64,000 nucleotides of DNA from Patescibacteria group bacterium (GTDB lineage Bacteria; Patescibacteriota; Microgenomatia; UBA1400; PJMF01). The stretch's first letter is position 1. Each line of letters starts with the position of its first letter. The DNA lies in the NCBI GenBank assembly GCA_016861205.1, contig BOKX01000001.1, forward strand, positions 392,539-456,538, given 5' to 3'. A program made the position numbers and the translations under genes. Of the stretch, positions 1 through 19,988 are shown in pieces. The notes below the pieces were generated by a model. It did no database searches, was not told the origin of the DNA, and saw nothing but the letters and a program-made list of their open reading frames with translations.

Positions 1-480
1 ACGTTAGCTGCCTTTCAAATCATTGCAAAAGAGAACCCCACCATTAAGTTGTTGATCGGCGGTGCTGGACCGGAGAGCCAGTTTATTAAAAAGTTTATTC
101 GCACCCAACAACTGGAACAGAGTATTATCTATTTGGGTCCCATCTCCAACGACGCTAAAGAGGCGTTTTTTGCGCGTGGTGAGTGCTTGATTCAACCCTC
201 ATACTCAGAAGGTTTTGGTCTAGTATATGCTGAGGCAGCCGTCAGAAAAAAAGTGCTGATTGCCACCGATGTGGCAGATCTCAAACACACCTTTGGCAAT
301 CAGATATATTGGTGCCAAAAACAAAGTGTGAAAAGCCTAGTTGAGGCAATTCAAACGGTGCTCAATGAGCCTAATTTCTCTCATCTCAACTATGCGCCGA
401 TAATTCCACGCTACAACCTGCAAAAAATTGCCGACTCCATCCTGGAAGTTGCTTTTCAAGACAATGTTTCCAACAGCTGA
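1..480 (+). CDS. Glycosyltransferase family 4 (GT4), C-terminal fragment; 5' end lies outside the window
   Basis: The reading frame is open from nt 1. The 'EGFGLVYAEAAVRKKVLIATDV' block is the typical GT4/GT-B C-terminal nucleotide-sugar-binding motif. Confidence 0.7.
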   Translation, partial: TLAAFQIIAKENPTIKLLIGGAGPESQFIKKFIRTQQLEQSIIYLGPISNDAKEAFFARGECLIQPSYSEGFGLVYAEAAVRKKVLIATDVADLKHTFGNQIYWCQKQSVKSLVEAIQTVLNEPNFSHLNYAPIIPRYNLQKIADSILEVAFQDNVSNS

Positions 481-1535
481 AGTATCTGTTTCGCCCCCTC
501 ATGATAACTGAGCTGTTTCAAGTGCACCACCCGTTTGGGGGTACGTAGTAGCTTCAGAATCTTTGGTGCATCCGCCTCTGCTGAAAAAGTAAACTCGTGC
601 AGAAGTGCCTGAACGTCTGGCAAGTATGGTTGTTTATTGCCGACAATTGTCGGCAGGCCGGCATTCAGCGCCTCGTAAACCGGAAAACCAAACCCCTCAT
701 ACACACTGGGAAATACAAACATTTTCGCGTCATGATACAGTCTAGCTAGCTTTGCCAAGGACACTTTGGGAAACCAATACAACCCTGGTGTAGCACGCAG
801 CTGATCCGACAATTCAAACAACTGGTTGCCATTGTGGCCAACCAACACCAGCTTGAGGTCAGGACGAGCTGCCAGAATTTTGGGCCACAACTCTAATAGA
901 TACATAATCCTTTTGTGCGGATAAAAAGCACTCACACACAGAATATAGTTGTCTGTGACCAACTTCGGTTCAGATGGTTTGGTAAGTAGAGTTAAAAACC
1001 ATTCATCGAGCCCCGGCAAAACAACTTTGATGCGTTCGCTCAAACTCGGAAAGTAGTGCTGCAGTCTCGCCTGTGAAAAAGGTGAGTCGGTCACAATCAG
1101 CTGACTGCGATGAGCAGACTGGGTAATCAAAAAGTTAAGTAGTTGATTCTGAAGCCAGGCCGTGTCTTCTGGATGGTCCTTCCAGTTTGCATCATGAATG
1201 GTCGTAACTTTTGCAAAGTTACCCCACAGTGGCCCAAAGTAACCATATGAATGGAGCACGGCACAACCAGCCGCAGACACCTTGAGGGGAAAGGCCACCT
1301 GCTCATACAGCAGTCTTGCAACTCTGGCTTTGCCAGATATGGGACACAAAACTTTTTTCCACTGAGGATGATCTACCGAAAAGGTCTCGAAGTTCTCTTT
1401 GTTACAAAAAAGTACAAACCTATGTTCAGTTTTGAGTTGTTGGAGATACTTCACGAACGATCGCAAGTGATACTCAGTTCCGCCCACTGCATTTGGAACT
1501 AGAAATAAGGCGTTAATACCAATTACTTTTTTCAT
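456..1535 (-). CDS. Glycosyltransferase family 4 (GT-B fold)
   Basis: 359 aa with the C-terminal 'VFPSVYEGFGFPVYEALNAGLPTIV' EX7E-like GT4 motif. It is co-directional with downstream glycosylation genes. Confidence 0.75.
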   Translation of the reverse strand: MKKVIGINALFLVPNAVGGTEYHLRSFVKYLQQLKTEHRFVLFCNKENFETFSVDHPQWKKVLCPISGKARVARLLYEQVAFPLKVSAAGCAVLHSYGYFGPLWGNFAKVTTIHDANWKDHPEDTAWLQNQLLNFLITQSAHRSQLIVTDSPFSQARLQHYFPSLSERIKVVLPGLDEWFLTLLTKPSEPKLVTDNYILCVSAFYPHKRIMYLLELWPKILAARPDLKLVLVGHNGNQLFELSDQLRATPGLYWFPKVSLAKLARLYHDAKMFVFPSVYEGFGFPVYEALNAGLPTIVGNKQPYLPDVQALLHEFTFSAEADAPKILKLLRTPKRVVHLKQLSYHEGAKQILQLLETLS

Positions 1536-2953
1536 GTTTCTTTAAACCAGTTATTCCATACTGGGCAGCTCAAAATGTAAAACCAAATTAAGGCAACGAG
1601 AAACATACTCATTCTCATGACTGACCCGCCGATTTGATCCCAAGTCACAAACACAAAACTAAAAATATACGTCCCAGTAAAGATCAAGATCAAAGTTGCC
1701 CAAATCGTGCCATTCATTACCAATAATCGATACCAGTTTTGATGTCGCAAATCATGCCATTGGACCGCCAGCCATGGTACAAACAGGTAATTAATTAGCG
1801 GCCAAACATAGGCCAGTAAGTACCGAAAAACTGCCAAAATATGGCTGCCTTGTGTACTCAATGGTTGGGTGAGAATGTGTAAATAACTGACCGGAATAAC
1901 TTGAGAAATAATTGACAGCAATTTAGTACCCAGATTGGTTTGTTGGCTCTGTTCATTGTTTGGCAAAGCTACTTGAACTGGTGACTGGCTTATCAAATAA
2001 ACCAAGTTGAGCCAGGCTCGCTTTGCTCCATATAAAACGAATACTCCTCCCACCGCAACGCTCCACGAGCGCTGCCTCAGTACTGCTATGGTCAACAAGC
2101 CAGCCCCTACTACCCAAAACGGCTCGCTCGACCGAACCCAGAGGCTCAAAGCCACCAGTAACGTACCTACCAACCAATCTCGGCTGGGTGTCTTCCTATC
2201 ACCGGCTAACCACAAATACACAATCCCCAAAGCTAAAAATGCACTATAAGCCAGATTGGTATAGGCGACCGTGGCATGTTCCAAAAAATGTGGCGAGTAG
2301 GCCAGTAGCACTGCCCCAAACAAGCTCACGCCTCGCGTTGTCCGTCTTCTCAGCAATGCATAAAAAGTGATGACGAACGACAGGTAGATCAGCGTGTACC
2401 AGACCTTAGCAGCTTGGAAACCTAGTGCATAGTTGGCTGCGTGCAGCAGCGAGGTGAATGGCGGATACTGAAAAAAGTAACCCAGAGTAAAACCTGATTT
2501 CCAACTCCCCTCAGCGATAAGAACCTTGGCCCGGAAATCATAGAGTGCTAACGCATCCCAATCAGTTACTGGCCAAACAACGTTGGGAATCAAGCTGAGC
2601 ACAACCGGAACTATCACCAGGACCACCAATATCTGCTGCCAGACCGGCAAGACAAAAAACTTGGTGATAAACGCCAACTCAAACCACCGTCCACCTTGAA
2701 GCTTGTAAAGCGTCCCCAGCGAGACCAGGTTGAAAATGAGAACCGCTCCAACCAGCTCAGCAGTAAATGGGATTCGCAGTCCCAGGTGCGCAGCCAATAA
2801 GACTATGGTCAACCACGCCGAACCAAGTAGACCAGCCAAACCCAGCCGTTCCCAATTGTGTGCAACCCCCAGCAATCGAGTTAACCACCAACCACTAAAC
2901 CAGGTACTACCAAATAAAAACCCGGCCGATAGTATCTGACTGATTGTGTTCAT
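1532..2953 (-). CDS. Polytopic integral membrane protein (possible polymerase/ligase or GT-C-like), function unknown
   Basis: 473 aa, with more than ten hydrophobic helices throughout. It is embedded in the glycosylation locus and overlaps its neighbour by 4 nt. Confidence 0.4.
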   Translation of the reverse strand: MNTISQILSAGFLFGSTWFSGWWLTRLLGVAHNWERLGLAGLLGSAWLTIVLLAAHLGLRIPFTAELVGAVLIFNLVSLGTLYKLQGGRWFELAFITKFFVLPVWQQILVVLVIVPVVLSLIPNVVWPVTDWDALALYDFRAKVLIAEGSWKSGFTLGYFFQYPPFTSLLHAANYALGFQAAKVWYTLIYLSFVITFYALLRRRTTRGVSLFGAVLLAYSPHFLEHATVAYTNLAYSAFLALGIVYLWLAGDRKTPSRDWLVGTLLVALSLWVRSSEPFWVVGAGLLTIAVLRQRSWSVAVGGVFVLYGAKRAWLNLVYLISQSPVQVALPNNEQSQQTNLGTKLLSIISQVIPVSYLHILTQPLSTQGSHILAVFRYLLAYVWPLINYLFVPWLAVQWHDLRHQNWYRLLVMNGTIWATLILIFTGTYIFSFVFVTWDQIGGSVMRMSMFLVALIWFYILSCPVWNNWFKET

Positions 2954-2983
2954 TCCCCCAATCGCTTTCCGATTATGTACATA

Positions 2984-3970
2984 TTATCGCTTTAATTTTA
3001 AAATGCCCCAAAAATCCTGATATTTTATGGGGTCGTAGCCCTCGTTTCTGATCAATGTTTCAGCTTGACTATCTCGATCAATAAATGACAGGAACTCAAC
3101 TTGCCTCGCAGGTATCGTGATCTTGGGCCAGCCACACTCAACATTGATACATTCACCCTTTGCAATAAGGATGTACTCAGCGTTTGGTGGAATTTGATTG
3201 TCAGCCATCATATGTACCAGACGACGTGGATAGAGGTACCACCGAAGATACTCAACATTCCCTTCCATCTTCCAGTCGTCGCTCTGTGGGGGAAGCACAA
3301 TGACCGCATTTTCGGGTGTTATCCTTTTTATAAACTGAGAGTAGGGCCAAATCCAACCGTAATAATGAACACCCCCCAGCTGCGATGTAATTCGTTCAAA
3401 GTAGGGCGTTGGTAGATTTTGAAGGGCTCGCACTGAGGTAGACAGCAGCTGGCTCATACCCAGTTGCAGTTGCCACACACCCACCGCGAGCATCAAAAGT
3501 GCCACCGCACTCCACAGCTTGATCTTGATGTATGGTCGCAAATCAAACTTGAGCGACCACCACAAGCCAACGGCTAGGAGTAACCACCTGAGTAAGTACC
3601 AAAAAGGCAATGTGATCAACCGGTGCAACTTTAACGTAAAAAACCACCCAGGAACATCAAAGCGGTAAATATTAACCACTAAGCATCCAACCTGAAATAC
3701 CAAGGCCAAAGCTACCCCACCTAACAACAGCCCTACTCCTTTTAAGAACCGGCTTTGCCAGCTGGTGGTTGTAAACTGCACACCACACACCAGTATCAAA
3801 ATAAGCGCGACTTGATATCCAGCCGCGACTGCTGGGTCAAAGGGATACTTAACAGCTGTCCACGTGTTTACACCGGCAAACAAACCGAAGATCAGCAAAA
3901 GCCACAGTGGCAGAGTCTTTTTGAGACCCGCTCCACCGTTCCTGGGCTGCGTTACTGTAACACTCGGCAT
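2984..3970 (-). CDS. Membrane protein with an N-terminal TM bundle and a C-terminal soluble domain, function unknown
   Basis: 328 aa. Several N-terminal hydrophobic helices are followed by a ~130 aa hydrophilic C-terminus. Confidence 0.35.
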   Translation of the reverse strand: MPSVTVTQPRNGGAGLKKTLPLWLLLIFGLFAGVNTWTAVKYPFDPAVAAGYQVALILILVCGVQFTTTSWQSRFLKGVGLLLGGVALALVFQVGCLVVNIYRFDVPGWFFTLKLHRLITLPFWYLLRWLLLAVGLWWSLKFDLRPYIKIKLWSAVALLMLAVGVWQLQLGMSQLLSTSVRALQNLPTPYFERITSQLGGVHYYGWIWPYSQFIKRITPENAVIVLPPQSDDWKMEGNVEYLRWYLYPRRLVHMMADNQIPPNAEYILIAKGECINVECGWPKITIPARQVEFLSFIDRDSQAETLIRNEGYDPIKYQDFWGILKLKR

Positions 3971-5664
3971 TCTGTCTCAACGATACCAGATAAAACCAAC
4001 GAGTAGCAACCAGCTTCCGATTGTGGTAGCTCAGGCAGTGGCCGGTAGGCATTATTGCCTTCCACAGATATCTGCTCAAGTTGTCGAGCCAACCCAGCTT
4101 CCAAACCTGGTGATACTGTTGTTTCGTCATAACCATGCAATCGTAGATAAAATGGGTTGCTAATTTCCTGAGCTGTCAGAAATACCCGATAACTGTAAAT
4201 CGGCTCGTAATCCCATACTGATGCACTCTCCACCACGACCGGGACTTGTGGATGAGACCGCAACTCGGCAGCAATCTTCTCAATGTACGCCGTAAATGCC
4301 CTTGTTCGGGTCGCGTTTTCTGCGACCGCAACTTTGGTACTCACAAAGCCACGCATTATAACCAAACAGCCTAGCCCCAACAGAAAGCCCCATTTGATTC
4401 CCCCCGTAACAGCGGTTGGCAACTTTAGCTGTCGCAGCAAACTCACCACTAGCCAGAGCAAGACCAAATAGTACATCGGCTCATAAAGTAAGCCAGGGAA
4501 ATCGTATCGATTGTGATCTGGCCAGTGACCGTTGTAAAACACAAACTGCGTGATGAACAATGCCCACAATCCCATCAGGTATATTCCCGCCCGCAGCTGA
4601 GTGGGAAGTAACTTCTGGGTGTCAGGGTTTCTGGTCAACCACGTCAGGGATGTCAGACCTACCAGCAAGCCTATGGTAACCATCAGCTGCTTGCTTTGAT
4701 GAGTTTTAAAACTCAGAATGAGAATCTGGGTCCGACTTTGAGCAGATGTTGACTGAGCGTAAACATCTTGACCTGTGGTTAGGGTAGCTACCATCACTGC
4801 CCAAGTTACTAACGCTACCATAGCCACTTGTGCCACAAAACTTGTTATCGCCGGTAGCGTCAGTCGCCGATAGAACATGGTCCGCACAAACAGAACTGCC
4901 AACGGCACCACCATCAAAACCATGTTTTCTTTTGAGCCAACCGTAATGACTGCCCCTACCGCCAAGCCCAACCACCAGGTCCACTTGACGGGTCGCTTTG
5001 GTAGCGCCCGCCAAATGATGGCAAAACACCACAACCCTAAAGCTAGGCCAAACACTAGGTATGCTTCTGATGGACCCAATCGAGCCAGCACATCTTTCCA
5101 GAAATCATAGGAAAAAATGTAGAGTGTTACTACACCGCCACCAACCCAGCCTAATAATGGTGTACTCAGCCACCAAATAACAGCTAAAAAGCTGGTCATA
5201 AACAATAACCGGGTAACATACCAACCAGTCGGATTGTTATCCCAAGCAGCTGTCTCAAACAAACGTAGGGTTTGGTAGACTGGACGGTAGCGTGGTACTT
5301 TGCCCGGTAAGGCTGCTTCACTCTGTACCCAGCGCTCGGGAATATCTTGCAGGCTCATCTTGCCATCTGATCCCAAGTTATTCATGATTTCATGGTCATC
5401 AATGACACCCCATTTGGCTGTGATGTTTGGCCAGTAAATACTCAGGACCATGGCGAGCGAAAGCAGTCCAGTGGCCAACCAACGCAGCTTCATAAGCCAT
5501 GCTTGTTTGGGAGAACCAGCCAGCCACCAAATCCCGTATGCACCAAACCAAGCTGCTAATAGATACGTTAACGGCTGCGTCACCAAAAATCTTGGTTCAA
5601 ATTCGAAATAAGCCAAGGTCATGACCGCAAAGAGTACACTCAATATGCCGTCTTTTGCTTTCAT
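3952..5664 (-). CDS. GT-C-type (ArnT/PMT-like) polytopic membrane glycosyltransferase, putative
   Basis: 570 aa with many TM helices and an acidic 'IDDHEIM' loop motif near the first extracytoplasmic loop. Its stop overlaps the adjacent GT2 start by 4 nt. Confidence 0.45.
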   Translation of the reverse strand: MKAKDGILSVLFAVMTLAYFEFEPRFLVTQPLTYLLAAWFGAYGIWWLAGSPKQAWLMKLRWLATGLLSLAMVLSIYWPNITAKWGVIDDHEIMNNLGSDGKMSLQDIPERWVQSEAALPGKVPRYRPVYQTLRLFETAAWDNNPTGWYVTRLLFMTSFLAVIWWLSTPLLGWVGGGVVTLYIFSYDFWKDVLARLGPSEAYLVFGLALGLWCFAIIWRALPKRPVKWTWWLGLAVGAVITVGSKENMVLMVVPLAVLFVRTMFYRRLTLPAITSFVAQVAMVALVTWAVMVATLTTGQDVYAQSTSAQSRTQILILSFKTHQSKQLMVTIGLLVGLTSLTWLTRNPDTQKLLPTQLRAGIYLMGLWALFITQFVFYNGHWPDHNRYDFPGLLYEPMYYLVLLWLVVSLLRQLKLPTAVTGGIKWGFLLGLGCLVIMRGFVSTKVAVAENATRTRAFTAYIEKIAAELRSHPQVPVVVESASVWDYEPIYSYRVFLTAQEISNPFYLRLHGYDETTVSPGLEAGLARQLEQISVEGNNAYRPLPELPQSEAGCYSLVLSGIVETECRVLQ

Positions 5665-6668
5665 ATTTTCTTGTCTTTCGCAATCTCTTCCCGGATCAGT
5701 GCGACTGGTCTGGCTTTTATTTCTTCGTAAATTGCAGCTAAATACACCCCAACCAACCCAATAAAAAGTGACAAAAAACCACCGACAACTAACAGTACAA
5801 AGGTGACACTCGCCCAGCCACTGACCACGTCTCCCACCACCAGCTTTACATACAAAACGTACACCGCGTACACCAGTGCCGCGATAAATAAACCAACGCT
5901 AAAAAAAGAAGCTAGCTGTAACGGAACCGCTGTAAACGCAGTTACACCACTAAACGCTAAACTCCACATCTTATGCCAAGTATATTTACTCTCACCAACC
6001 ATACGAGCTGGGGCCTGAAACGGTAAAATAATAGTCTTGAAACCAATCCACCCCACCATGCCTCGCAAGAATTTTCGACCCTCAGGCAGTGATAGCAAGG
6101 CATCAAGGGCCGTCCGATTCATCGAGCGAAAGTCTGAACCATTGATCGTGATTCGGGTTTCACTCATCAAATTAATCAGGGTGTAAAAACTCTGCGAAGC
6201 GACTCGTTTCAGCCAAGGAACCCGGTCGGTATCTGTGCGCTCAGTCAAAACGATGTCGTAACCTTGGTGGTGTAGTTTCAACATGTCCAAGATCAGTTCA
6301 GGTGGATGCTGTAAGTCACCGTCCATTGTTACGATGATTCGACCTTTGGCTGCTCTCAAACCTACAAACAGCGCTGCTTGATGTCCAAAGTTTCGCGACA
6401 AACTAATAATGTGACATTGCCATGGCTGGCGAGCATTCTTCAACGTTTCCAAAGTCATGTCACTGCTGCCGTCATCGACCAAAATCAGCTCAGTTGCCGC
6501 CGGCAGTTGTCGAGCCAAACGGGTCAATGATTGAAGCAAATCAGGGATCACCTCAGCTTCATTAAAAAGGGGAATAACTATCGAAAGCTCGGGTACACGC
6601 GGTAGTGGCGACGTTAGCTTTCGGGCTGCCATAGATTGTCTTACGTTCTGGGCTGTGCTAAATACCAA
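5661..6668 (-). CDS. GT2 polyprenyl-phosphate sugar transferase (GtrB/ArnC/DPM1-like) with C-terminal TM helices
   Basis: Carries '[14 protein letters not shown]...[12 protein letters not shown]' GT-A/DxD motifs plus two C-terminal hydrophobic helices, the architecture typical of lipid-phosphate sugar synthases. Confidence 0.75.
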
Positions 6669-7606
6669 TCAACTGTTCGCTGTAGACCTTCTGCAAACGG
6701 AACACTTGATTCAAAATCAAACTCTTGCTTCGCTCTTGTCACATCTAATTTTCGTCGTGGCTGTCCGTCTGGTTTACTCTCATCAAACACAATGTGTCCA
6801 GTATAACCAACGGCAGCCTTGATTGTTTCGGCTAGATCCTTAATGCTGATTTCAAAACTTGAGCCCAAGTTAACTGGCTCAGAGCCATTGTATCGCTCAG
6901 CAGCCAACAAAATACCTCGAGCTGCATCTTCAACATATAAAAACTCTCGTGTTGGTGTACCGGTGCCCCACACCACAACTTCAGGCTCTTGAAGTTGCTT
7001 AGCTTCAACAAACTTTCTGATCAAGGCTGGAATGACATGGCTTGATGCCGGATCAAAATTATCACCTGGACCATACATATTGACTGGCAGCAAATAAATA
7101 GCATTAAAATCGTACTGGCGTCGATACGCCTGCGCTTGAACTAGCAACATTTTCTTAGCCAAGCCATAAGGCGCATTAGTTTCCTCAGGATATCCATTCC
7201 ACAAATCAACTTCTTTGAAAGGCACCGGCGTGTACTTGGGATAAGCGCAGATCGTGCCCAACCCCACAAACTTGCTTACGCCTGACTTGCGAGCTTCTTC
7301 CATGATATGAACGCCCATTAAAAGGTTGTCATAAAATAAAGAACCGGGATACTCGAGGTTGTAACCAATCCCACCCACATTGGCAGCCAAATGGATAACT
7401 ACATCAACACCCTTTGTTACTTCAGCGCAAACCGCTTGATCTCGTAGATCAGCTTCCTGGGAACGCGGAACTCTCAGCTCTGACAGCGGCAGAGACTCCA
7501 AGAGTTTAGTTACTTGCCGGCCAACAAACCCGTGTCCACCAGTAACTAAGACCCGCAACCCTTGCCATGACTGGGGATTAAGAGAGACCTGCTCTGAATT
7601 TGGCAT
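6641..7606 (-). CDS. fcl: GDP-L-fucose synthase (GDP-4-keto-6-deoxymannose 3,5-epimerase/4-reductase)
   Basis: Carries '[14 protein letters not shown]' NAD(P) Rossmann and '[12 protein letters not shown]', '[18 protein letters not shown]', '[18 protein letters not shown]' blocks that closely match E. coli Fcl. Confidence 0.85.
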
Positions 7607-7608
7607 AC

Positions 7609-13270: not shown

Positions 13271-14315
13271 GTAAAACCTGCTGATAAACTTTCACCGTCT
13301 CAACCGCGGTGCGACTCCACGTAAACTTACTCGCCCACAATGAAGCTCGTCGGGTTCGATCTGATCTCACTCGTTCTGACCAGCCGGCCACAGTGGTAAT
13401 ACCTTGAGCCAATCCCTCTGCTGTTGGCTGCACAACAACTGCTTGAGCGCCAGCGACTTCCACCAAAGCAGCCGTGTCAGTAATCACAACCGGCACTCGG
13501 CACTGCATGGCTTCTAAAACGGGTAGTCCGAAACCTTCGGCTAGCGATGGTTGCACGTAAGCTAGAGCACCAGAGTAGATTGCGGCCAAGTCTTCGACTG
13601 CTTCCGGACCAAGATCAGTTATAAACTTGACTCGACTCTCGACATTACTCAACGCCAATTGAGACTCGATCCACTTCCATTCTGGAATCGGCTGAGGTAT
13701 GAAGTTCTTTCCGACACACACTAAATGGATGTGTTCTGGAATAAATTTGAGCGCCTTAATTAGTTGTGGCAGATTTTTGTTGTAGTTGATGTCACCCACG
13801 TACAAAATATATGCGTCCGGCAACTGCAACTTCTGTTTTACGGTTATGATTTGACTTTGTTTTGACCGGGTTATTTCCGGTTGGGCTGCTAAGGGAACTA
13901 CAAAAACTTTGCGATCTGACACCCCAAGATAACGAATAATATCTTGCTTTGATGCCTGAGAATCTGTGATCACAGCTTCCACTCGCTGGACCAGCCATCT
14001 TTGTCGCCACAAGGCTGCGCGGCCTTTGATTCCTGGTTTGTAGTGGGCTGGATAACGTAAAGGAATGACATCGTGTACCGTAACCACAGTTGGAGCCGGT
14101 CGACGAACAGGTAGGGTAGGAAAAAAGAGATCAAAGTACGGATAGTGAATCAAGTCTGGCTTCAGCTTGGAAACTTCTGCTGGTTGCGTCGTCTCAAGCA
14201 ACTCAACAGTTCGTCGACGTTTCAGTTCGGCTGCTAACTCTCGGGTGTATCGACCGATACCCCTATGAGCATGGCCCGTTAGTAGCGGTGTGGTATCGAG
14301 TTGAACAGTAATCAT
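13254..14315 (-). CDS. Glycosyltransferase family 4
   Basis: C-terminal 'AYVQPSLAEGFGLPVLEAMQCRVPVVITD' GT4 motif. Confidence 0.75.
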   Translation of the reverse strand: MITVQLDTTPLLTGHAHRGIGRYTRELAAELKRRRTVELLETTQPAEVSKLKPDLIHYPYFDLFFPTLPVRRPAPTVVTVHDVIPLRYPAHYKPGIKGRAALWRQRWLVQRVEAVITDSQASKQDIIRYLGVSDRKVFVVPLAAQPEITRSKQSQIITVKQKLQLPDAYILYVGDINYNKNLPQLIKALKFIPEHIHLVCVGKNFIPQPIPEWKWIESQLALSNVESRVKFITDLGPEAVEDLAAIYSGALAYVQPSLAEGFGLPVLEAMQCRVPVVITDTAALVEVAGAQAVVVQPTAEGLAQGITTVAGWSERVRSDRTRRASLWASKFTWSRTAVETVKVYQQVLHEQKT

Positions 14316-15109
14316 ACGTTTTTCTTTGGTAACTTTAGTTCCCAGTACTTAAGGAATGCCACCGGATGATGCAAACCACTCATCACTGCGAACACAAAAC
14401 CCGGAAATCCATCAACAAACCCTTTATGGCGCAGGTACATTGAAACAAACGTAGCGAGTGGCAACCACACCCAAAACCTCAGAACACTGGGCAAGGCAAT
14501 TTTCAGTTTTTGATCTTTAAGCTGATAGGCTTTAAACGTTGTGTAGGTGTTGAACTTACGCAAGTAATCGGCAAAAGTTGGATTACTGTAATGTAGCAAA
14601 TGCCCCTCTGCCCAGCCGGTGCTGCCGTTGACCACCATCTGTTCGTGAACATCTTTCTGGGGCAACTCAGCCTGCCCCGCCTTGAACAACCTAATGACTG
14701 CATCAGGATACTGACCACCTTTGCTCAACCAGCGACCCATAAAAAAGTTCTTGCGCTTAATCCACCAGGCGCTGTCGGTGGTGGCCTCAAGATTTTGGGC
14801 AACTTTGACGATGAACGTCGCCAGTTCCGCATCAACCACTTCGTCAGCATCGAGTTGCAAAATCAGGTCACCTTTGGCGGCGTCGTTACCCATTTGCTTA
14901 TTGATATGAAAGTTGCGTTTGTTGGTAGTTTTTATGACACGAGCGCCATAACGACGTGCGATAGAGACCGTTTCATCGGTTGATTCACCATCAACGACCA
15001 CAATTTCGTCAGCCCATTTTTTGACCGAGTCTAACGACCGAGCTAAGTTCTCGGCCTCATTGTGAACTGCTAGAACGACTGAAATCATACCTATTCCAAG
15101 TTGTGCCAT
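14312..15109 (-). CDS. Glycosyltransferase family 2 with C-terminal TM segment
   Basis: Carries 'ISVVLAVHNEAENL...VVVDGESTDET' and a hydrophobic C-terminus. The start may be at M8 (15088). Confidence 0.7.
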   Translation of the reverse strand: MAQLGIGMISVVLAVHNEAENLARSLDSVKKWADEIVVVDGESTDETVSIARRYGARVIKTTNKRNFHINKQMGNDAAKGDLILQLDADEVVDAELATFIVKVAQNLEATTDSAWWIKRKNFFMGRWLSKGGQYPDAVIRLFKAGQAELPQKDVHEQMVVNGSTGWAEGHLLHYSNPTFADYLRKFNTYTTFKAYQLKDQKLKIALPSVLRFWVWLPLATFVSMYLRHKGFVDGFPGFVFAVMSGLHHPVAFLKYWELKLPKKNV

Positions 15110-16661
15110 CCCATTGTAGCAGGATTACCTCAGTCGGCACACGATCGGCCTGTTGGGCTATGAAGTGGTATCTACCAACCTGTTGGCCATATTGTAACCC
15201 AACTTGATTCGGCTGCTGCATGATAACAGTGGCTCGAAAAACACTGGGTGGCAAACGCAAACTCCAAGCTACTTGGATGTAACTGTAACCATCTTCATCC
15301 ACCACTGCCACTGGCACGCCAGGATATCGCTGCTCTACGTCTTGGACTGCCTCGGTTAATCCGGCTTTGAGAATCCGAGTGCTCTGGGCTGGATACCCAC
15401 GAAAGTACCGCCACAGATAGTGGCCACTTTGGTAAACGGCTAATGAAACCAAAGCCACCACAGCAACTTGAGCTAGGCGTCGCGACCAGCGTCTGAGCCA
15501 CTCAGTCAGGAACCAGACTCCAAACCCTGACCACCAAATCAGAGTCAGCAAGAAAACTAAGCTCCGGGTAGCGTGCGGAGCATCGACGGTGATCACGGCC
15601 GGACCCAAACTCACCATCGTTGTGAGCCACCACCAGAGTTGCCATCGCCCAGCTTCGGACTTCAATTTTTGGCGGCGTTGACCTGCAAAATCAATCAGCC
15701 ACCCCAACCAGCCCACCACAGCCATCACGTACACAACACTCACTAGATGTCCTGTGCCTGGTACCTGGTGCCAAGGATGAGCACCTCCACGTTGCACCAC
15801 AAAAGCAGGGCTCCAGCTCGCCACCCAATTCCTGGTGAGGCGCGTTGTTAGATAAACATACTTGTTTCCCAACAGGAGCTGCTGAGAACTGGGTAGCGCA
15901 GATCGATACTCAACAAACTGTGCCCATACCGTCGGATCACCAAAGAGCGTGACTGCCGACTTTTGGGCAGAGGCGGCTCGTTGCACCAGGAAACCCAGAC
16001 CAGCCACCAAACAAAGACCCATGACTGGCAACACCCAGGCTCGCCATTGCTTCCAACCGCGACCTAACACCACCCCCACCACCACCCAAGGAGCGAGTAA
16101 AAGTGGGGTGTTGTACGTTAAAATAGCTGCCGACATTGCCACCAATCCCAGTATGTCAGTCCGCCACCGGTGCTGGGTTTTTGGTTTACTTACTACCCAA
16201 ATGCTCAGCAACCACCAGGCTAACGCCACCATCGCCTCCCAAGCCATTCGCGAGTAGAAGAGCATGACTGGGCTGACGGCTACCACGCCAAGTACCCACC
16301 ACTGACTCCGCTTTGGCCAAGCAGCTTGGCGCACAATAGCGAACGACAAGCCAACTACAGCTACCCCAGCCGCAGCGGCTGGCCAGCGAATGACACTATC
16401 GCTGTCACCAAACATTCGGAATAACGCCACCAACAACCACACGTATCCACTCAGTTTGTAATCACCAAACGATTTCAGAGTCAGCGGCCAGCGTTGACCC
16501 CACTCATCAGCCCCCGTTTGATGAATCAAAAACGCGTTGTACGCTAAGGCTGCCTCATCCCGATTCAAAGCGGCCGGAACTTGAGCCAGGCGCCAAAACC
16601 GAGTGATCGTGGCCAAACCCAAAATCAAAACCAAACCAATAACGGGCAACTGTGACTTCAT
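15057..16661 (-). CDS. GT-C family 39/83-like (ArnT/PMT-like) membrane glycosyltransferase
   Basis: First-loop 'NRDEAALAYNAF' DE motif and 'FGDYKLSGYVWL', with more than 10 TM helices. It is a paralog of the next gene (shared GDYKL). Confidence 0.6.
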   Translation of the reverse strand: MKSQLPVIGLVLILGLATITRFWRLAQVPAALNRDEAALAYNAFLIHQTGADEWGQRWPLTLKSFGDYKLSGYVWLLVALFRMFGDSDSVIRWPAAAAGVAVVGLSFAIVRQAAWPKRSQWWVLGVVAVSPVMLFYSRMAWEAMVALAWWLLSIWVVSKPKTQHRWRTDILGLVAMSAAILTYNTPLLLAPWVVVGVVLGRGWKQWRAWVLPVMGLCLVAGLGFLVQRAASAQKSAVTLFGDPTVWAQFVEYRSALPSSQQLLLGNKYVYLTTRLTRNWVASWSPAFVVQRGGAHPWHQVPGTGHLVSVVYVMAVVGWLGWLIDFAGQRRQKLKSEAGRWQLWWWLTTMVSLGPAVITVDAPHATRSLVFLLTLIWWSGFGVWFLTEWLRRWSRRLAQVAVVALVSLAVYQSGHYLWRYFRGYPAQSTRILKAGLTEAVQDVEQRYPGVPVAVVDEDGYSYIQVAWSLRLPPSVFRATVIMQQPNQVGLQYGQQVGRYHFIAQQADRVPTEVILLQWDGTTWNRYDFSRSSSSQ

Positions 16662-16668
16662 GTTCCTT

Positions 16669-18408
16669 TTAGCGCGGAGCTACTTCTACTACTATGTAAC
16701 TTGACTGGGCGGTGGGACCGGGTATGTCTTGTTTTGATGAAACTACCAGCGGCTGTTCATCGAGGAGTCGCCGAACAGCCTCAGCAGTCCCAGCCACTAC
16801 TGTTGGTCGGACGACTGGATCACGGGCATCAAGTTTAATCCCATCAAAATCGTGAAACAAGTATGCCGCTGTTGGCCAAGTTTGATACTGGCTTGCTGGG
16901 TACGGCCCAAACGCCAGCAACCACAGATAGAAACGATAATCAAAACTCAGAATAGCCACTGGCTCACCAGGCTGTCGTAGCTGATAAATAGTTTCGGCCA
17001 CTTGCTTGTAGTTGCCCTGCCAGGCTTCAAATGAGTCTTGGGGATAGACGTGTAAGTAGTGATACCACCACGGCCAACTCGAAACGACAACAACCATTAC
17101 CGCTAGACCTGTGCTAAGTTCAGCTACATATCGTACTTTTGATCCAGTTACTTCGACAAACCAACCAATAGCCGCAGTTATGCCGCCAGCAACTAACAAA
17201 CAAACCGGCACTAAAGCGTTCAGTGATCGAAGTGCATGTGGTGTATCTTCTGGAATCGAAGCTGGCAGTAAAGCGATCAGCCACCAAGTTATGAGTAGTG
17301 CTAAAACACCCGGTCGGCGCTGCCACCACCAGCTCACACCCCAAAACAAGAATGGTAAAAGTGTTAGTGACAACAAACCGTGCTGACCAGTACCATGACG
17401 AAGATTGGGATCGCCAGTCATGAATAAGTAGTTCAGATCCAAATGGTCGGCATAGTTCGACAATACTTCTCTAACAAGCAACCAATGCCGGTGAAACAGG
17501 ATCCGATCCCACAGTTGGTTGCCCGCCAACTCTCGGTAGACATTTGACTGCACCACGTATGAACTCGAGTTTAAAACTGAGGTGGTTCCCAACCGAAATC
17601 GGTTGCTGTCGGCATACAGCGGCGAACGTATCATTGGAATCAGACAAACCCCAAACACAATACCCGCACCACCTACCCGCAATAGCCAAGCTTTCCACCA
17701 ATCCAACTCTCGCCAACGCCAGCCGTCAGCCGGAATGACCACAAAGATTGCTGTGGCAAGCAAAAGAACTGGCCACACAAACCGAACTGAAAAATAGCCA
17801 TACGTAGCGAGGCCACCCAAGATGGGAGCCAGCCACCACACTTTTGGCCACTTGGTGGACAAGACCATGCTCAACACTGATAGCGCAACCAGCAGTTGTG
17901 CTACATGTCCCTCAAAACCTGTTCGCGAAAACATGACACTCCAAGGTGTCAATGCCACCACTGCCATAGCAACGACCCGAAGTATGATATTGATTGGTGG
18001 TTTACTTTTCGGTTGGCTAAACTCGCCAAGTAAGTAATGGGCCAAGTAACCCGCCACCAGCACAGTGCCCAGCCCTGCCAGAGCACTCGGTAGCCGCAAA
18101 GCCCACTCATTTGCGCCAGCTAACTTGACACTCAGTGACGCCAACCAGATATAGACTGGCAACTTGTAGTCACCGTATGAGGGGTACATGACTTGAAACC
18201 ACGGCCGATTGTGCATATCCCGACCTGTTTCGGCAACCGCTCGGGCATCAGCCAAAATGGCAACTTCATCCCAATACAGACCAAGGGGAACTTCACCAAG
18301 ACGGTACAACCGCACGAAAACTGCTACCAACAGTATTACTCCTATGAGCCAGCCGTACCAACGCATGCCATCATCATAGCATTGAGGTACAATGATGGTA
18401 CATGTCAA
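16669..18408 (-). CDS. GT-C family 39/83-like (ArnT/PMT-like) membrane glycosyltransferase
   Basis: Carries 'YWDEVAILADARAV...YGDYKLPVYIWL'. The likely true start is M15 (18366), which removes the 5'-5' overlap with the divergent gene. Confidence 0.6.
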   Translation of the reverse strand: MTCTIIVPQCYDDGMRWYGWLIGVILLVAVFVRLYRLGEVPLGLYWDEVAILADARAVAETGRDMHNRPWFQVMYPSYGDYKLPVYIWLASLSVKLAGANEWALRLPSALAGLGTVLVAGYLAHYLLGEFSQPKSKPPINIILRVVAMAVVALTPWSVMFSRTGFEGHVAQLLVALSVLSMVLSTKWPKVWWLAPILGGLATYGYFSVRFVWPVLLLATAIFVVIPADGWRWRELDWWKAWLLRVGGAGIVFGVCLIPMIRSPLYADSNRFRLGTTSVLNSSSYVVQSNVYRELAGNQLWDRILFHRHWLLVREVLSNYADHLDLNYLFMTGDPNLRHGTGQHGLLSLTLLPFLFWGVSWWWQRRPGVLALLITWWLIALLPASIPEDTPHALRSLNALVPVCLLVAGGITAAIGWFVEVTGSKVRYVAELSTGLAVMVVVVSSWPWWYHYLHVYPQDSFEAWQGNYKQVAETIYQLRQPGEPVAILSFDYRFYLWLLAFGPYPASQYQTWPTAAYLFHDFDGIKLDARDPVVRPTVVAGTAEAVRRLLDEQPLVVSSKQDIPGPTAQSSYIVVEVAPR

Positions 18409-19988
18409 TCAAACGCAGTTGGTGGTTAGGAATCGTTGGTAGTCTCGGTTACTTAGCAGTGACCTGGTGGCGGTTAACGAGCTTGCCTGTCTTTGCTGAC
18501 GAAGCCATTTACATCAGATGGGCTCAACTCATTATCGATGATTGGTCACGCTATCTTTTCTTTCCAATGAACGATGGTAAAACCCCATTGTTTGTATGGC
18601 TGATGGTACCTGCCTTACAATTATTCAACAACCCGGTCTGGGCAGCGAGACTGGTATCTGTGTTGGGTGGGTTCGTTCAAATCTGGCTGACTGGCCACAT
18701 TCTGAAAACGCTCGGGGCTAAACGGCAAACTCAGTGGTTGGGTATGCTGTTTATGACCGTTTTGCCCTACTGGTACTTCCACCATCGTATGGCTTTGATG
18801 GATGGGTGGCTAGCCACTGCTGTCACCGGCACATTATGGGCACTACTGCAGCTGGCCCAAGTCGTAGCTAACCGCTTGAAAACCAAGAAGGATCATCAGA
18901 GAATTTGGCAGCCAACTGGTTCAGAGCTCATGTGGATCGCGATGGCTGGTGGGTGGTGGGGTCTAGCTTGGTGGTTAAAGTTGCCCGCTATCTTGATAGC
19001 ACCCTTGTTTGTGCTGATACCTCTGTGGCCAAAAACTATGAGTTGGTCAGGTCGTTTAGCACTGACCATCCGAGTTGGTGCTGCCGGCTTTTTAGGCTTG
19101 TGTCTGTTTGTAATTCTAAGAGTGAGCCCCGTGTTTGGCCAACTATTTGCTCGTGGCAGTGACTTTCTTTACCCTTTGAGCACTGTGCTGGCTGGTGGGT
19201 GGACCCAAACTTTGCCAAACCTACCCACGTATGCTTGGTACTTCGTCACGTATCTGACCTGGCCGATCTGTTTGGCAGCGGTAAGTGGTTGGTTTTCAAA
19301 GCGGCATCAGCGAACTCATTTCCTGCTGTGGGGAGCTGCGTTGGGGTATGCTGTGCCCATAGCCCTGCTAGGCCGAGTGGTTTATCCCCGCTACTTGCTG
19401 CCAGCGGCAGTGTTCCTAACCATCAGCGCCGCCTTGGTGTACGAAGAGTGGTTGACCCATTGGGTTGGTGAGGCAAAAACTCTTCTCGCCAAAACTTGGC
19501 ATGGCTTGGTGATTGTCGGCTTAATCGCCCAAACGCTCGGTTTGAGCACTGTTTTTATGGTCACCAGCTGGTACTGGCCTGATCAAACCCCATTCGTCAG
19601 TGCTGATCGTTCTCAGTACTTGGAAGAATGGTCATCTGGTCACGGAATTGTCGAAGCGGTTCAGTACATTCAATCCCAACAGGCCAATCACTCAGTGGCG
19701 GTAGCCACTGAAGGCTACTTCGGCACTTTGCCCGATGCGCTGTTACTCTACTTCTTTGGCCACAATGTTGACAACCTAATGATTGAGGGTATTGGTCAGC
19801 CAGTTGTCTCGATTCCCGCTGAGTTCTGGCAACGATCAACTAGCTACCAACAAGTTCTCTTGGTTGTTAACTCACATCGCTTGCAACTACCCTTAGCTCG
19901 CGAGCACCTCCGGCTTGAAGTGTGTCGACCGAACGGGGCCCCGTGTTTGCAGGTGTGGGACATCACTACGCTGCGGCCGAAGAACTAG
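18402..19988 (+). CDS. GT-C family ArnT/PMT-like membrane glycosyltransferase
   Basis: 'FADEAIYIRWAQ' DE-motif loop after TM1, with about 12 TM helices. It is divergent from the two paralogs. Confidence 0.55.
   Translation: MSIKRSWWLGIVGSLGYLAVTWWRLTSLPVFADEAIYIRWAQLIIDDWSRYLFFPMNDGKTPLFVWLMVPALQLFNNPVWAARLVSVLGGFVQIWLTGHILKTLGAKRQTQWLGMLFMTVLPYWYFHHRMALMDGWLATAVTGTLWALLQLAQVVANRLKTKKDHQRIWQPTGSELMWIAMAGGWWGLAWWLKLPAILIAPLFVLIPLWPKTMSWSGRLALTIRVGAAGFLGLCLFVILRVSPVFGQLFARGSDFLYPLSTVLAGGWTQTLPNLPTYAWYFVTYLTWPICLAAVSGWFSKRHQRTHFLLWGAALGYAVPIALLGRVVYPRYLLPAAVFLTISAALVYEEWLTHWVGEAKTLLAKTWHGLVIVGLIAQTLGLSTVFMVTSWYWPDQTPFVSADRSQYLEEWSSGHGIVEAVQYIQSQQANHSVAVATEGYFGTLPDALLLYFFGHNVDNLMIEGIGQPVVSIPAEFWQRSTSYQQVLLVVNSHRLQLPLAREHLRLEVCRPNGAPCLQVWDITTLRPKN

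Follow-up and report, generated by a model that had tools for sequence, protein, structure and literature searches.

A probable surface-glycan locus with a lineage-conserved core in a Patescibacteria bacterium, in which two candidate lipid-phosphate-sugar synthases accompany seven GT-C glycosyltransferases

The window (the whole 64,000-nucleotide stretch of DNA analysed) comes from a Patescibacteria (CPR) bacterium with a small genome and carries, in its first 19,988 nucleotides, about two thirds (the right-hand part) of a locus that spans 30 kb or more and probably serves surface-glycan biosynthesis. We consider it likely (probability of about 0.72) that two lipid-phosphate-sugar synthases feed seven GT-C glycosyltransferases working on the outer face of the membrane, and that cytoplasmic glycosyltransferases and SDR enzymes complement them. 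The proposal of the first-pass annotation that this is a cell-envelope glycosylation locus was supported; seven GT-Cs, conserved acidic loop motifs and a GT2 enzyme, g5, of genuine GtrB/ArnC type were found.

The analysis established which genes are present, to which families and folds they are assigned, how far motifs and gene order are conserved, and that homologs exist in which g12 is fused with g11 or g2 with g3. Eighteen genes were found in positions 1-19988, 17 of them complete and one, g0, cut by the window edge (its complete form in the full contig encodes 373 aa; L003, 11056-12177). Sixteen closely packed or overlapping ORFs, g16 to g1, occupy the minus strand at 456-18408 and would constitute one long operon, whereas the plus strand at 18402-19988 holds a single divergent ORF, g17 (Table 1). 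According to Pfam and NCBIfam, the region encodes three GT4 (g0, partial, g1, and g13), four GT2 (g5, g7, g9, and g14), two SDR enzymes, one 113-aa protein, and eight polytopic membrane proteins (g2, g3, g4, g11, g12, g15, g16, and g17). The genes were real and lay where the first-pass annotation had placed them, and its count of four GT2 was right; its nineteen consecutive genes, four GT4 and five to seven polytopic proteins needed correction, and its island of about 20 kb truncated the locus, which extends at least 10 kb further left of the window edge.

Table 1. Genes of the glycosylation locus within positions 1-19988 of the window
Gene	Coordinates	Strand	Assignment
g0	1..480	+	C-terminal 143 aa of GT4, window-cut; Glycos_transf_1 1.3e-16
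g1	456..1535	-	Soluble GT4, 359 aa; Glycos_transf_1 1.6e-24, Glyco_transf_4 4.9e-11
g2	1532..2953	-	GT-C-fold membrane glycosyltransferase, 473 aa, all-helical, without soluble domain
g3	2984..3970	-	328 aa: some 5 TM helices at the N-terminus, then a domain of roughly 160 aa at the C-terminus; split-off module of g2
g4	3952..5664	-	GT-C-fold glycosyltransferase, 570 aa, C-terminal alpha/beta domain; family without Pfam model
g5	5661..6668	-	Predicted GtrB/ArnC-type polyprenyl-phosphate glycosyltransferase: GT2 domain and C-terminal TM hairpin
g6	6641..7606	-	GDP-L-fucose synthase-like SDR (GDP-4-keto-6-deoxyhexose epimerase/reductase type)
g7	7609..8403	-	Soluble GT2, 264 aa; Glycos_transf_2 1e-18
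g8	8406..8747	-	DUF2304 protein, 113 aa, 3 TM; PF10066 5e-13
g9	8744..9415	-	GT2, 223 aa, without TM helices; candidate polyprenyl-monophosphate sugar synthase (PpgS/GacI/DPMS-like)
g10	9468..10388	-	GalE-like NDP-sugar epimerase/dehydratase (SDR); Epimerase 1.1e-58
g11	10403..11545	-	GT-C superfamily protein, PIG-V-like, 380 aa
g12	11555..13270	-	GT-C superfamily protein, PTPS_related/AftD-like, 571 aa
g13	13254..14315	-	GT4, 353 aa, conserved core; Glycos_transf_1 3.6e-22
g14	14312..15109	-	GT2, 265 aa, conserved core; Glycos_transf_2 2e-21
g15	15057..16661	-	PMT_2-type GT-C, 534 aa
g16	16669..18408	-	PMT_2-like GT-C, paralog of g15
g17	18402..19988	+	Divergent, remote PMT_2-like GT-C, 528 aa

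Seven of the eight polytopic proteins (g2, g4, g11, g12, g15, g16, and g17) are of GT-C type; the remaining one, g3, represents a module that has split off from g2. Evidence came from Pfam matches within the families, from profile-profile comparison and from confident AF2 models of g2 and g4; topology was based on a crude hydropathy and positive-inside count. At least five GT-Cs had been expected; the membrane proteins did not fall into non-GT families, and acidic loop residues were conserved in all the GT-C families tested. The PMT_2 model was matched by g15 just above its cutoff (8.2e-6; 26.6 bits vs. 26.1) and by g16 below it (0.0017); the two are paralogs (blastp 1e-19), and the likely start of g16, according to the gene caller, is the ATG at 18366, giving 565 aa. 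In the family of both proteins (n = 29), PMT_2 was found in 21 members and PMT in 5. The DE and GDYKL motifs described earlier were confirmed: g15 displays D35-E36 (E36 invariant, D35 at least 90% conserved) and G66-D67-Y-K69, the latter also present in g16, with G66, D67, and K69 invariant. Orthologs of g16 occurred in 32 of the 33 related loci, with scores up to 529 bits. No Pfam match of its own was obtained for g17, which carries D33-E34 in the motif FADEAIY and was retrieved at 1.8e-10 with the profile of the g15/g16 family; it had a close ortholog only in one related locus (L021). In g12 an invariant D43 and a conserved E45 lie in YTHDGENH, its homologs carry PF10131, a member of the Pfam GT-C clan (PMC7801869), or PF11847, and its profile matched the PMT_2-like one (HHalign 88% over 243 columns). 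The corresponding HHalign value for g11 was 84%. Without a Pfam family match of its own, g11 has 24 homologs among which Mannosyl_trans2 (PIG-V) was matched by four, PMT_2 by three, and GT87 and ALG10 by one each. The motif WANFDGVHY...FFPVYP, previously ascribed to PIG-V, is indeed present in g11 and its F60, D61, G62, F83, P84, and P87 are invariant across these homologs; the assignment to PIG-V is valid for the superfamily only. Of 120 homologs, 13 have g11 fused to the C-terminus of a g12-like protein. Profile searches with the g11, g12, and g15/g16 families matched no solved GT-C by sequence.

For g2 and g4 the AF2 models added structural evidence. PMT_2 was found in 4 of 35 homologs of g2, and HHalign against the PMT_2-like profile gave a probability of 67%, with the DWD of the loop motif D131-W-D133...D139 (D133 and D139 invariant) aligned to the DE motif. 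The best 17 Foldseek PDB matches of the g2 model (pLDDT 88.9) were all GT-C (ArnT, STT3, AglB, PimE, and ALG12), with moderate TM-scores of 0.34-0.40 and weak E-values (best 2.5e-2). Only 38 homologs of g4 were found, none of them with a Pfam domain, and its profile showed no resemblance to the PMT_2-like one (7%); both residues of its loop motif D89-D90 are at least 90% conserved, and the best 22 matches of its model (pLDDT 92.3, pTM 0.90) were again all GT-C (ArnT, STT3, ALG9, DPY19, PglB, Pmt4, and ALG3), with ArnT at 1.5e-4 and moderate TM-scores of 0.29-0.44. A Pfam or PDB match was lacking for g3, whose family counts 347 representatives. Its g3-like C-terminus is fused to a g2-like N-terminus in two proteins, P0302 (781 aa) and P0333 (759 aa), whose g2-like parts scored 4e-39 and 3e-42 against the profile, and g3 adjoins g2 in three related loci (L038, L033, and L014).

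Only two candidates for polyprenyl-phosphate-sugar synthases are present in the window, the GtrB-like g5 and the GacI/GacJ-like pair of g9 and g8. Residues 26-326 of g5 aligned with residues 26-327 of Synechocystis GtrB (sll0501; PDB 5EKP) at 1.3e-64; matches to PgfS (4e-67) and ArnC (1e-49) in NCBIfam were both under the equivalog cutoffs. Its C-terminal hydrophobic helices lie at 237-308, and the protein has 323 aa from the gene caller's start. Judged by its sequence, g5 is a genuine polyprenyl-phosphate glycosyltransferase of the GtrB/ArnC type. Two GT2s had been credited with C-terminal TM helices of this kind, which holds for g5 over its full length but not for g14, which has two weaker hydrophobic segments at its C-terminus and finds its closest solved relatives in GmaR (3.8e-11) and SunS. 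The NCBIfam model PpgS was matched by g9 over its full length (1.9e-29), far under the equivalog cutoff, and AglJ at 1.5e-21; its closest solved relatives, the best being DPMS (2e-10) and ArnC (1e-9), are all polyprenyl-phosphate sugar synthases. The start of g8 overlaps the stop of g9 by 4 nt, and the pair was kept in more than 20 related loci. The first-pass annotation had correctly described g8 as a three-helix protein between GT2s, here g9 and g7, and took it for a GtrA-type flippase. This candidate was rejected: g8 scored 49.7 bits against DUF2304 (PF10066; cutoff 25.5), and GtrA in Pfam was not matched even at E ≤ 10. In experiments, members of the GacJ/Rv3632 family, to which g8 belongs, bound the GT2 synthase encoded next to them and stimulated it, and GacJ likewise has 113 aa and three helices; export of the lipid-linked sugar in Streptococcus pyogenes has been proposed for another protein, GacK of the Wzx family (bioRxiv 10.1101/180810). 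We accordingly regard g8 as the predicted activating partner of g9.

Most NCBIfam equivalog matches in the locus were under their cutoffs, and this qualified both sugar-modifying enzymes named earlier. The GDP-fucose synthase model (NF047922, Fcl) was matched by g6 over its full length at 1.4e-85, with 287 bits against a cutoff of 500 (Epimerase, 8.3e-56), and the GalE-like epimerase g10 matched GalE at 7.9e-52 and RmlB at 3.9e-50, both under cutoff. The top NCBIfam match of g7 was TuaG (3.8e-13), and the best PDB relatives of g13 were GlgM (5.6e-14) and MshA.

Comparison with 33 species-level relatives indicated that the core of the locus is conserved in the lineage and is not an unusual island. 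The order g16-g15-g14-g13-g12(-g11-g10) was collinear in 27 of the 33 related species, an arrangement far beyond chance, and the conserved stretch often reached g5; orthologs of g13 and g14 occurred in 29 and 30 loci, respectively. In contrast with this vertically conserved core, the periphery (g0 to g4, thus including g1, and g17) is variable, with orthologs in only one of the 33 related loci. The locus is unusually rich in GT-Cs, as had been claimed, but a median of six per 21.6-kb locus among the relatives makes this density typical of the lineage and no oddity of the host genome. It is therefore very unlikely that horizontal transfer brought in the locus as an island varying between strains, inserted for example beside the tRNA-Gln gene located 760 bp past its right end. 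The variable periphery and the slightly lower GC at 1-2000 and 8001-10000 (0.44-0.45) would agree with acquisition, but the GC of the locus (0.44-0.51) lies inside the range of the remaining window (0.44-0.53), the flanks are housekeeping genes, and the locus showed neither an integrase nor any other gene for mobility.

The Gtr system of Shigella, Salmonella, and phages, which glucosylates O-antigen, consists of the synthase GtrB, the flippase GtrA, and a serotype-specific GT-C (Gtr*), and its logic pairs a cytoplasmic lipid-phosphate-sugar synthase with an extracytoplasmic GT-C (PMC11127046). Several such complete modules stacked in one locus, with the 113-aa protein as flippase, had been proposed, which we now find improbable. 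It is true that g5 is a full-length GtrB homolog including the TM hairpin, that the GT-C-fold g4 directly follows it, an arrangement shared by all 6 of 6 relatives, in which a g4-like gene comes after the ortholog of g5, and that the small membrane protein g8 is flanked by two GT2 genes. However, g8 is a DUF2304 protein whose characterised homologs GacJ and Rv3632 stimulate a synthase while export is proposed for GacK, and g14 did not align with GtrB or ArnC past the GT2 core. Further differences from the Gtr system lie in g4, which fits none of the Pfam GT-C families, and in the host, a CPR bacterium with no LPS or O-antigen genes seen in the window. As seven GT-Cs share two synthase candidates and neither GtrA nor another flippase is encoded in the window, stacked three-component modules misdescribe the locus; a better fit is a supply of two donors to many GT-Cs. 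A parallel to g9 and g8 is found in GacI/GacJ of the GlcNAc side-chain pathway of S. pyogenes (GacI/GacJ/GacK/GacL) and in PpgS/Rv3632 of Mycobacterium tuberculosis: a TM-less GT2 is followed by a DUF2304 gene with overlapping stop and start codons, and GT-C enzymes are encoded close by. Unlike the Gac pathway, the window lacks a GacK-type Wzx, which the relatives have beside the core. The assembly of lipomannan, lipoarabinomannan, and arabinogalactan in mycobacteria and corynebacteria (PimE, MptA-C, Emb, and AftA-D) similarly combines many divergent GT-C paralogs with one or two polyprenyl-monophosphate donors (polyprenyl-phosphate-mannose and decaprenyl-phosphate-arabinose) and a primer made by cytoplasmic GT4 enzymes. 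Some g12 homologs match the AftD model PF11847, and PimE and AftA were among the fold matches of g2. This is a likeness without demonstrated orthology; the mycobacterial genes are scattered whereas those of the locus are packed into a single predicted operon, and no inositol-lipid or arabinose-donor genes (DprE, UbiA-type) were seen.

A tentative possibility, clearly less probable than the main reading, is that the PMT_2-like enzymes (g15, g16, g17, and perhaps more) do not build a polysaccharide but serve as protein O-glycosyltransferases, modifying, like actinobacterial Pmt, secreted proteins such as pilins or those of an S-layer. The first-loop DE motif recalls the PMT (GT39) protein O-mannosyltransferases matched by some g15/g16 family members, Pmt4 and Pmt1-Pmt2 were among the fold matches of g4 and g2, the solved relatives closest to g14 glycosylate proteins or peptides, and glycosylated S-layers of CPR bacteria have been speculated on (PMC5220378). 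Unlike PMT, the window proteins showed no MIR domain match and scored at or under the PMT_2 cutoff. That family also includes the lipid and polysaccharide glycosyltransferases of ArnT type, ArnT is the best structural match of g4 as well as of g2, the locus contains no gene for a candidate acceptor protein, and the abundance of cytoplasmic GT4 and GT2 enzymes, like the Wzx flippases of relatives, points to a lipid-linked glycan. The likeness to ArnC/ArnT, which modify lipid A with aminoarabinose, extends to g5 (ArnC in PDB, 1.4e-43) and to the membership of the g15/g16 family in PMT_2, to which ArnT also belongs. By way of difference, ArnT was not matched at sequence level in profile searches, genes for ArnA, ArnB, ArnD, ArnE, and ArnF are absent, and a lipid A pathway is not expected in CPR bacteria (PMC5220378). 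It is also unlikely, if somewhat less so than the stacked modules, that some polytopic proteins are polymerases or ligases (Wzy, WaaL, or oligosaccharyltransferase-like) acting on polyprenyl-diphosphate oligosaccharides. The oligosaccharyltransferases STT3, PglB, and AglB were among the best fold matches of g4 and g2, one g15/g16 family member weakly matched O_anti_polymase, and the Wzx flippases and WecA-type initiating enzyme beside the core in relatives imply diphosphate-linked intermediates. However, WaaL was matched by g2 only at E 8.6, no WWDYG-type oligosaccharyltransferase motif was spotted by eye in the translated sequences, and two monophosphate-sugar synthases favour monosaccharide donors.

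For the reading in which two synthases feed seven GT-Cs, we infer the donor type, sidedness, and order of action as follows. On the cytoplasmic face, g6 and g10 would tailor nucleotide sugars and the soluble GT4 and GT2 enzymes (g0, g1, g7, g13, and g14) would assemble a lipid-linked primer, while g5, by means of its own TM hairpin, and the TM-less g9, in complex with g8 as in GacI with GacJ or PpgS with Rv3632, would load single sugars onto polyprenyl phosphate. As seen, the pathway is incomplete: the window and the adjoining 10 kb on its left contain no gene for a flippase, an initiating phosphoglycosyltransferase, a polymerase, or a ligase. The lipid-phosphate-sugars would be flipped by a flippase encoded elsewhere; in relatives, Wzx-type genes adjoin the core. 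On the outer face, the module of g2 and g3 and the GT-Cs g4, g11, g12, g15, g16, and g17 would then use these donors, by way of conserved Asp/Glu residues in the predicted first outer loop, and would thereby extend or decorate a polymer of the envelope or proteins at the surface. With seven GT-Cs and two synthases of lipid-sugar donors, the operon thus probably acts outside the cell, where it would make a surface glycan or decorate one.

Positions 1-19988 hold a probable envelope-glycan operon whose core is conserved in the lineage and whose peripheral genes vary. Gaps of at most 52 nt or overlaps of 4-53 nt separate the genes of its minus strand, and together with the divergent g17 and the edge-cut g0 a total of 18 genes were counted, in place of the 19 reported in the first-pass annotation. 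Four GT2 enzymes were recovered by Pfam and NCBIfam as that annotation had proposed (g5, g7, g9, and g14), the GT4 enzymes were three (g0, g1, and g13) and not four, and polytopic membrane proteins numbered eight, above the five to seven estimated; the motifs quoted in it are present in the sequence, and its remark on a small genome agrees with the occurrence of the exact g4 protein on a contig of 1,149,156 bp. Pfam GT2 and GT4 domain matches were found for the soluble glycosyltransferases. Two short-chain dehydrogenase/reductase (SDR) enzymes were present, g6, similar to GDP-L-fucose synthase (NCBIfam, 1.4e-85, 287 bits vs. a cutoff of 500 bits), and g10, of GalE/RmlB type (Pfam and NCBIfam). 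The products of g2, g3, g4, g11, g12, and g17, all of them polytopic membrane proteins, gave no Pfam or NCBIfam match.

Contigs carrying identical proteins showed that the glycan locus continues for at least 10 kb past the left edge of the window; one GT2 of this left extension, of 573 aa, is partial at the end of the L003 contig stretch. At the right border, housekeeping genes follow the response regulator and the tRNA, and an Rfam scan detected one tRNA and nothing else. Scans for promoter and terminator consensus sequences did not exceed the shuffled expectation (28 vs. 21.4±4.7 and 29 vs. 23.7±4.7, respectively), so the reading as a single operon is carried by gene spacing and synteny. As listed, g16 begins with a TTG at 18408 and overlaps the start of the divergent g17 at 18402. 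The public gene call places the start of g16 at the ATG at 18366 (565 aa), leaving 35 bp between both genes; with such a short gap, the promoters of both must sit inside coding sequence.

Features of the locus, of its surroundings, and of related loci (L, related or identical-protein contig loci; P, homologous proteins in the public library)
Feature	Location	Strand	Description
g0	window left edge	plus	last 143 codons of edge-cut gene; GT4
g1 to g16	456-18408	minus	16 ORFs
g17	18402-19988	plus	divergent ORF
Response regulator	19985-20665		right border of locus
tRNA-Gln(CTG)	20752-20823		just past response regulator
1859-aa ORF	30270-35849	minus	weak HATPase_c and HATPase_c_3 near residues 135-213, sole Pfam matches
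Left extension	L003 11056-21080		rest of GT4 g0, WavE-like, two Glyco_trans_1_2, two further GT2, NTP_transferase, HAD phosphatase, faint GDPD-like
Left extension, small or unassigned soluble proteins	L003 11056-21080		four, among them 106-aa cupin-like, 313 aa, 269 aa
g12+g11 fusion proteins	P0008, P0011, P0018, P0019, P0021, P0044, P0050, P0051, P0053, P0064, P0073, P0088, P0107
g12+g11 fusion in loci	L007, L008, L057
Wzx-type flippase (Polysacc_synt)	L021 14247-15530		beside core in relative
Wzx-type flippase (Polysacc_synt)	L010 16823-18019		beside core in relative
Wzx-type flippase (Polysacc_synt)	L016 15329-16516		beside core in relative
Wzx-type flippase (Polysacc_synt)	L047 3692-5182		beside core in relative
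WecA/MraY-type transferase (PF00953)	L036 7985-9037		beside core in one relative

Homologs of g12 were found almost only in Patescibacteria/CPR metagenome-assembled genomes labelled Pacebacteria, Woesebacteria, or Microgenomates (the present NCBI name of the phylum is Minisyncoccota). Among genomes scanned at one per species, 80 loci encoding g12 relatives were recovered, all from Patescibacteria, and the 33 with full 10-kb flanks were used for counting; as loci were picked for g12, all frequencies refer to g12-bearing genomes. The order g16-g15-g14-g13-g12 was collinear in 27 of these 33 loci, and orthologs became scarcer for g11 (25), g10 (20), g9 (15), g7 (11), g6 (10), and g5 (7), down to about one locus out of 33 for g0-g4 and g17. 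The median number of GT-C-like ORFs in the related loci was six per 21.6 kb (range 4-8), and additional polytopic ORFs of these loci also matched GT-C profiles. The GC content across the locus was not anomalous. A horizontally acquired island inserted next to the tRNA was considered as well, and it was rejected for the core on the grounds of the conserved synteny and the unremarkable GC.

The position of g10 (e.g., in L010, L013, L019, and L021) was occupied by a close ortholog in about half of the relatives (430-510 bits) and by a different SDR, often followed by a Wzx gene, in the remaining ones (~100-170 bits). This suggests that the region downstream of g11 exists in two alternative versions. 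Many clearly patescibacterial contigs (L007, L010, L021, L023-L025, and others) bear the public titles "uncultured Pseudomonadales bacterium" or "Vitreimonas sp.", which look like mislabelled or placeholder taxonomy.

The GT-C enzymes of the locus total seven, one of them split over two genes; "at least five" had been claimed initially, and the higher figure comes from Pfam matches of homologs, HHalign, and AF2/Foldseek matches. A hydropathy scan gave 7-11 hydrophobic segments for each of g2, g4, g11, g12, g15, g16, and g17 (~8-13 transmembrane helices are expected for GT-C enzymes). The paralogs g15 and g16 (blastp 1e-19) lie around the cutoff of 26.1 bits for PMT_2 (PF13231; CAZy GT39/GT83-type), g15 barely above it (26.6) and g16 below (19.1), and in their family alignment 21 of the 29 members matched PMT_2 and 5 matched PMT. 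In this family E36 is invariant and D35 conserved at ≥90%, these being the acidic loop residues known as the DE motif of GT-C enzymes, and G66-D67-x-K69 ("GDYKL") is also invariant. No direct match to PMT_2 was obtained for g17 or g2; the g15/g16 family profile picked up g17 at 1.8e-10, and g17 carries "FADEAIY" (D33-E34) at the equivalent position.

For g12, which gave no Pfam match itself, many homologs with 37-43% identity matched PF10131 (PTPS_related), a member of the Pfam GT-C clan (PMC7801869), and a few matched PF11847 (GT-C_AftD). HHalign related the g12 family to the PMT_2-like family with 88% probability over 243 columns, with "YTHDGENH" aligned to the DE motif; D43 is invariant and E45 conserved at ≥90%. 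No Pfam match was found for g11 even at E ≤ 10, and its homologs hit only GT-C families, namely PIG-V (4 of 24, best 1.6e-5), PMT_2 (3), GT87 (1), and ALG10 (1). This distribution does not sustain the initial assignment of g11 to PIG-V/Mannosyl_trans2 (PF04188; GT76). Judging from its homologs, from HHalign against the PMT_2-like family (84%), and from the invariant F60-D61-G62 and F83-P84, the predicted g11 product is a PIG-V-like member of the GT-C superfamily, for which GT76 is at most a candidate family. Natural fusions of about 920-960 aa, g12-like from residue 1 to ~550 and g11-like from ~550 to the end, were full-length in 13 of the best 120 g12 homologs; one of them carries the JGI label "Gpi18-like mannosyltransferase". 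When the g12, g11, g15/16, and g3 families were run as profiles over the full set of PDB sequences, no meaningful match emerged, and three family profiles found no further GT-C paralogs between 20 and 64 kb of the window.

Structural comparison with solved GT-C enzymes was confined to g4 and g2. Only 38 homologs of g4 were detectable, none with a Pfam domain, and its family showed no profile similarity to the PMT_2-like one (HHalign, 7%), so that the GT-C status of g4 relies on its structure model. The AF2 model was an all-helical transmembrane bundle (pLDDT 92.3, pTM 0.90) whose best 22 Foldseek matches in the PDB were all GT-C enzymes (probability 0.98-1.00, TM 0.29-0.44), led by ArnT (E 1.5e-4) and followed by STT3, ALG9, DPY19, PglB, Pmt4, and ALG3; D89-D90 ("IDDHE") are conserved at ≥90%. 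According to this predicted fold, g4 represents a GT-C family that Pfam does not cover. In the case of g2, 4 of 35 homologs matched PMT_2, HHalign placed "DWDALALYD" on the DE motif of the PMT_2-like family at a probability of 67%, and D133 and D139 are invariant (D131, ≥90%). Its AF2 model was also an all-helical transmembrane bundle (pLDDT 88.9), and the best 17 PDB matches were all GT-C enzymes (ArnT, STT3, AglB, PimE, AftA, Pmt, and ALG12/3/9) but weak (E 2.5e-2 or worse, TM 0.23-0.40).

None of the tests identified a glycosyltransferase in g3. Its C-terminal domain was compared, by HHalign between families, with those of g15/16 and g4, and the probabilities were 4 and 1%, respectively. 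In two natural fusions, P0302 (781 aa) and P0333 (759 aa), the N-terminal half is g2-like and the C-terminal half g3-like, and the g3-g2 adjacency recurs among relatives. Since g2 alone lacks a soluble domain, we read g3 as the putative detached module of g2, comprising its C-terminal membrane part plus outer domain. The order is g2 then g3 in the fusions, and in the window (1532-3970) g3 is transcribed ahead of g2.

A conserved loop Asp/Glu is thus a feature of the g15/16, g12, g11, g4, and g2 families. By a crude hydropathy and positive-inside count, the acidic motif falls on the outer side in five of the seven proteins (g2, g4, g12, g15, and g16); the same count gave no usable side for g11 and g17, in which TM1 was missed or over-split. 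That the GT-C candidates may use polyprenyl-phosphate-linked sugar donors is implied by the presence of two candidate synthases in the locus, g5 and g9 plus g8.

The first of these, g5, aligned with the solved Synechocystis GtrB (5EKP) at 1.3e-64 (g5 residues 26-326, chain residues 26-327) and with ArnC at 1.4e-43, and its C-terminal transmembrane hairpin, with hydrophobic helices at 237-308, lies within the alignment. C-terminal helices of GtrB/ArnC type had been attributed to two GT2 enzymes, and this holds for g5 but not for g14, a GT2 with a hydrophobic C-terminus that resembles GmaR and SunS. The end of g5 shares 4 nt with the GT-C gene g4, and a g4-like GT-C was located beside the g5 ortholog or within two genes of it in 6 out of 6 loci having such an ortholog. 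The second candidate, g9, is a GT2 of 223 aa without transmembrane helix, whose best NCBIfam match was PpgS, the polyprenyl-P-GalNAc synthase of mycobacteria (full-length match, 1.9e-29; 102.7 bits, below the equivalog cutoff of 370 bits) and whose best solved relatives were dolichyl-P-mannose synthase (DPMS) and ArnC. It is immediately upstream of g8, which starts 4 nt ahead of the g9 stop codon (a 4-nt overlap), and the g9-g8 pair is kept in more than 20 related loci.

The three-helix, 113-aa product of g8 was initially taken for a GtrA-type flippase. It matched DUF2304 (PF10066) with 49.7 bits, above the Pfam cutoff of 25.5, and gave no Pfam match to GtrA even at E ≤ 10, so this assignment was abandoned. 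GacJ, likewise of 113 aa and three helices, and Rv3632 belong to the DUF2304 family; GacJ is purified together with the GT2 GacI, whose Km for undecaprenyl phosphate drops in its presence from 18.7 to 1.1 µM and whose Vmax increases ~340-fold. In that system the Wzx-family protein GacK is considered the exporter of the lipid-linked sugar, and the GT-C GacL carries out the transfer (bioRxiv 10.1101/180810). With g8 in the family of the GacI activator, and export credited to GacK, g8 is best read, by analogy, as a probable activating subunit of g9 rather than as a flippase. Both elements of a GacI/GacJ (PpgS/Rv3632)-type complex, the DUF2304 protein and the adjoining upstream synthase-type GT2, are matched by g8 and g9, which make a candidate pair of this type. 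This corrects a tempting mis-annotation, as a small protein of three helices need not be a GtrA flippase when it is encoded between GT2 genes.

Flippases of the GtrA, Wzx, MATE, and SMR families were absent from Pfam results for the locus, the remainder of the 64-kb window, and the 10-kb left extension, and the same three regions contained no initiating phosphoglycosyltransferase, Wzy, or WaaL. From the Gtr-type three-component modules envisaged in the first-pass annotation, the GtrB-type g5 and its adjoining GT-C g4 remain, and the co-encoded flippase does not. Genes for Wzx-type flippases adjoin the core in several relatives, and a WecA/MraY-type transferase is found in one (Table).

Elsewhere in the window, the 1859-aa ORF lies in the stretch of lowest GC (0.44-0.47 at 30-36 kb), with genes for GluRS and a D-Ala-D-Ala carboxypeptidase as neighbors; a giant ATPase, defence-type or MORC-like, is one possible identity, and a mobile insertion is another.

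Extracytoplasmic glycosylation is the mechanism with the best support. In this scheme g5, and g9 with g8, would act as polyprenyl-phosphate-sugar synthases making donors for the seven GT-C enzymes, and in the cytoplasm the GT4, GT2, and SDR enzymes would provide the primer and nucleotide sugars. Three-component systems follow the same logic (PMC11127046), whereas here there are two synthases, no flippase, and seven GT-C enzymes, a 2:0:7 ratio closer to the mycobacterial pattern of few lipid donors and many GT-Cs. A farther-reaching proposal, to which we give about one chance in four, is that the g16-g10 core, present in most of the Microgenomates-type Patescibacteria examined, is the machinery for a major undescribed CPR envelope glycopolymer or lipoglycan, polymerised largely outside the membrane by a divergent GT-C array. 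If true, its assembly would be functionally analogous to that of lipomannan and arabinan in mycobacteria, and the machinery would include at least one Pfam-less GT-C family (g4), besides a GT-C split in nature (g2+g3) and a fusion of two GT-Cs (g12+g11).

The structure, composition, and assembly of the CPR envelope are essentially unknown (PMC5220378). Literature searches pairing Patescibacteria/CPR and GT-C or mannosyltransferase turned up no relevant work; the GT-C-rich core conserved in CPR bacteria appears to be undescribed, as do the g4 family, the split g2+g3, and the g12+g11 fusion. All parts belong to known enzyme superfamilies and the mechanism is conventional, so that known biology is extended and not overturned. 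Testable handles are the two donor synthases, the GtrB-plus-GT-C pair (g5 and g4), the GacI/GacJ-type pair (g9 and g8), and the Pfam-less g4 family. CPR/Patescibacteria account for a large share of bacterial diversity and have tiny genomes and a life attached to other cells. That a genome of ~1.15 Mb maintains at least 30 kb of glycan genes around a GT-C-rich core conserved across many species points to the glycan as important for this attached lifestyle.
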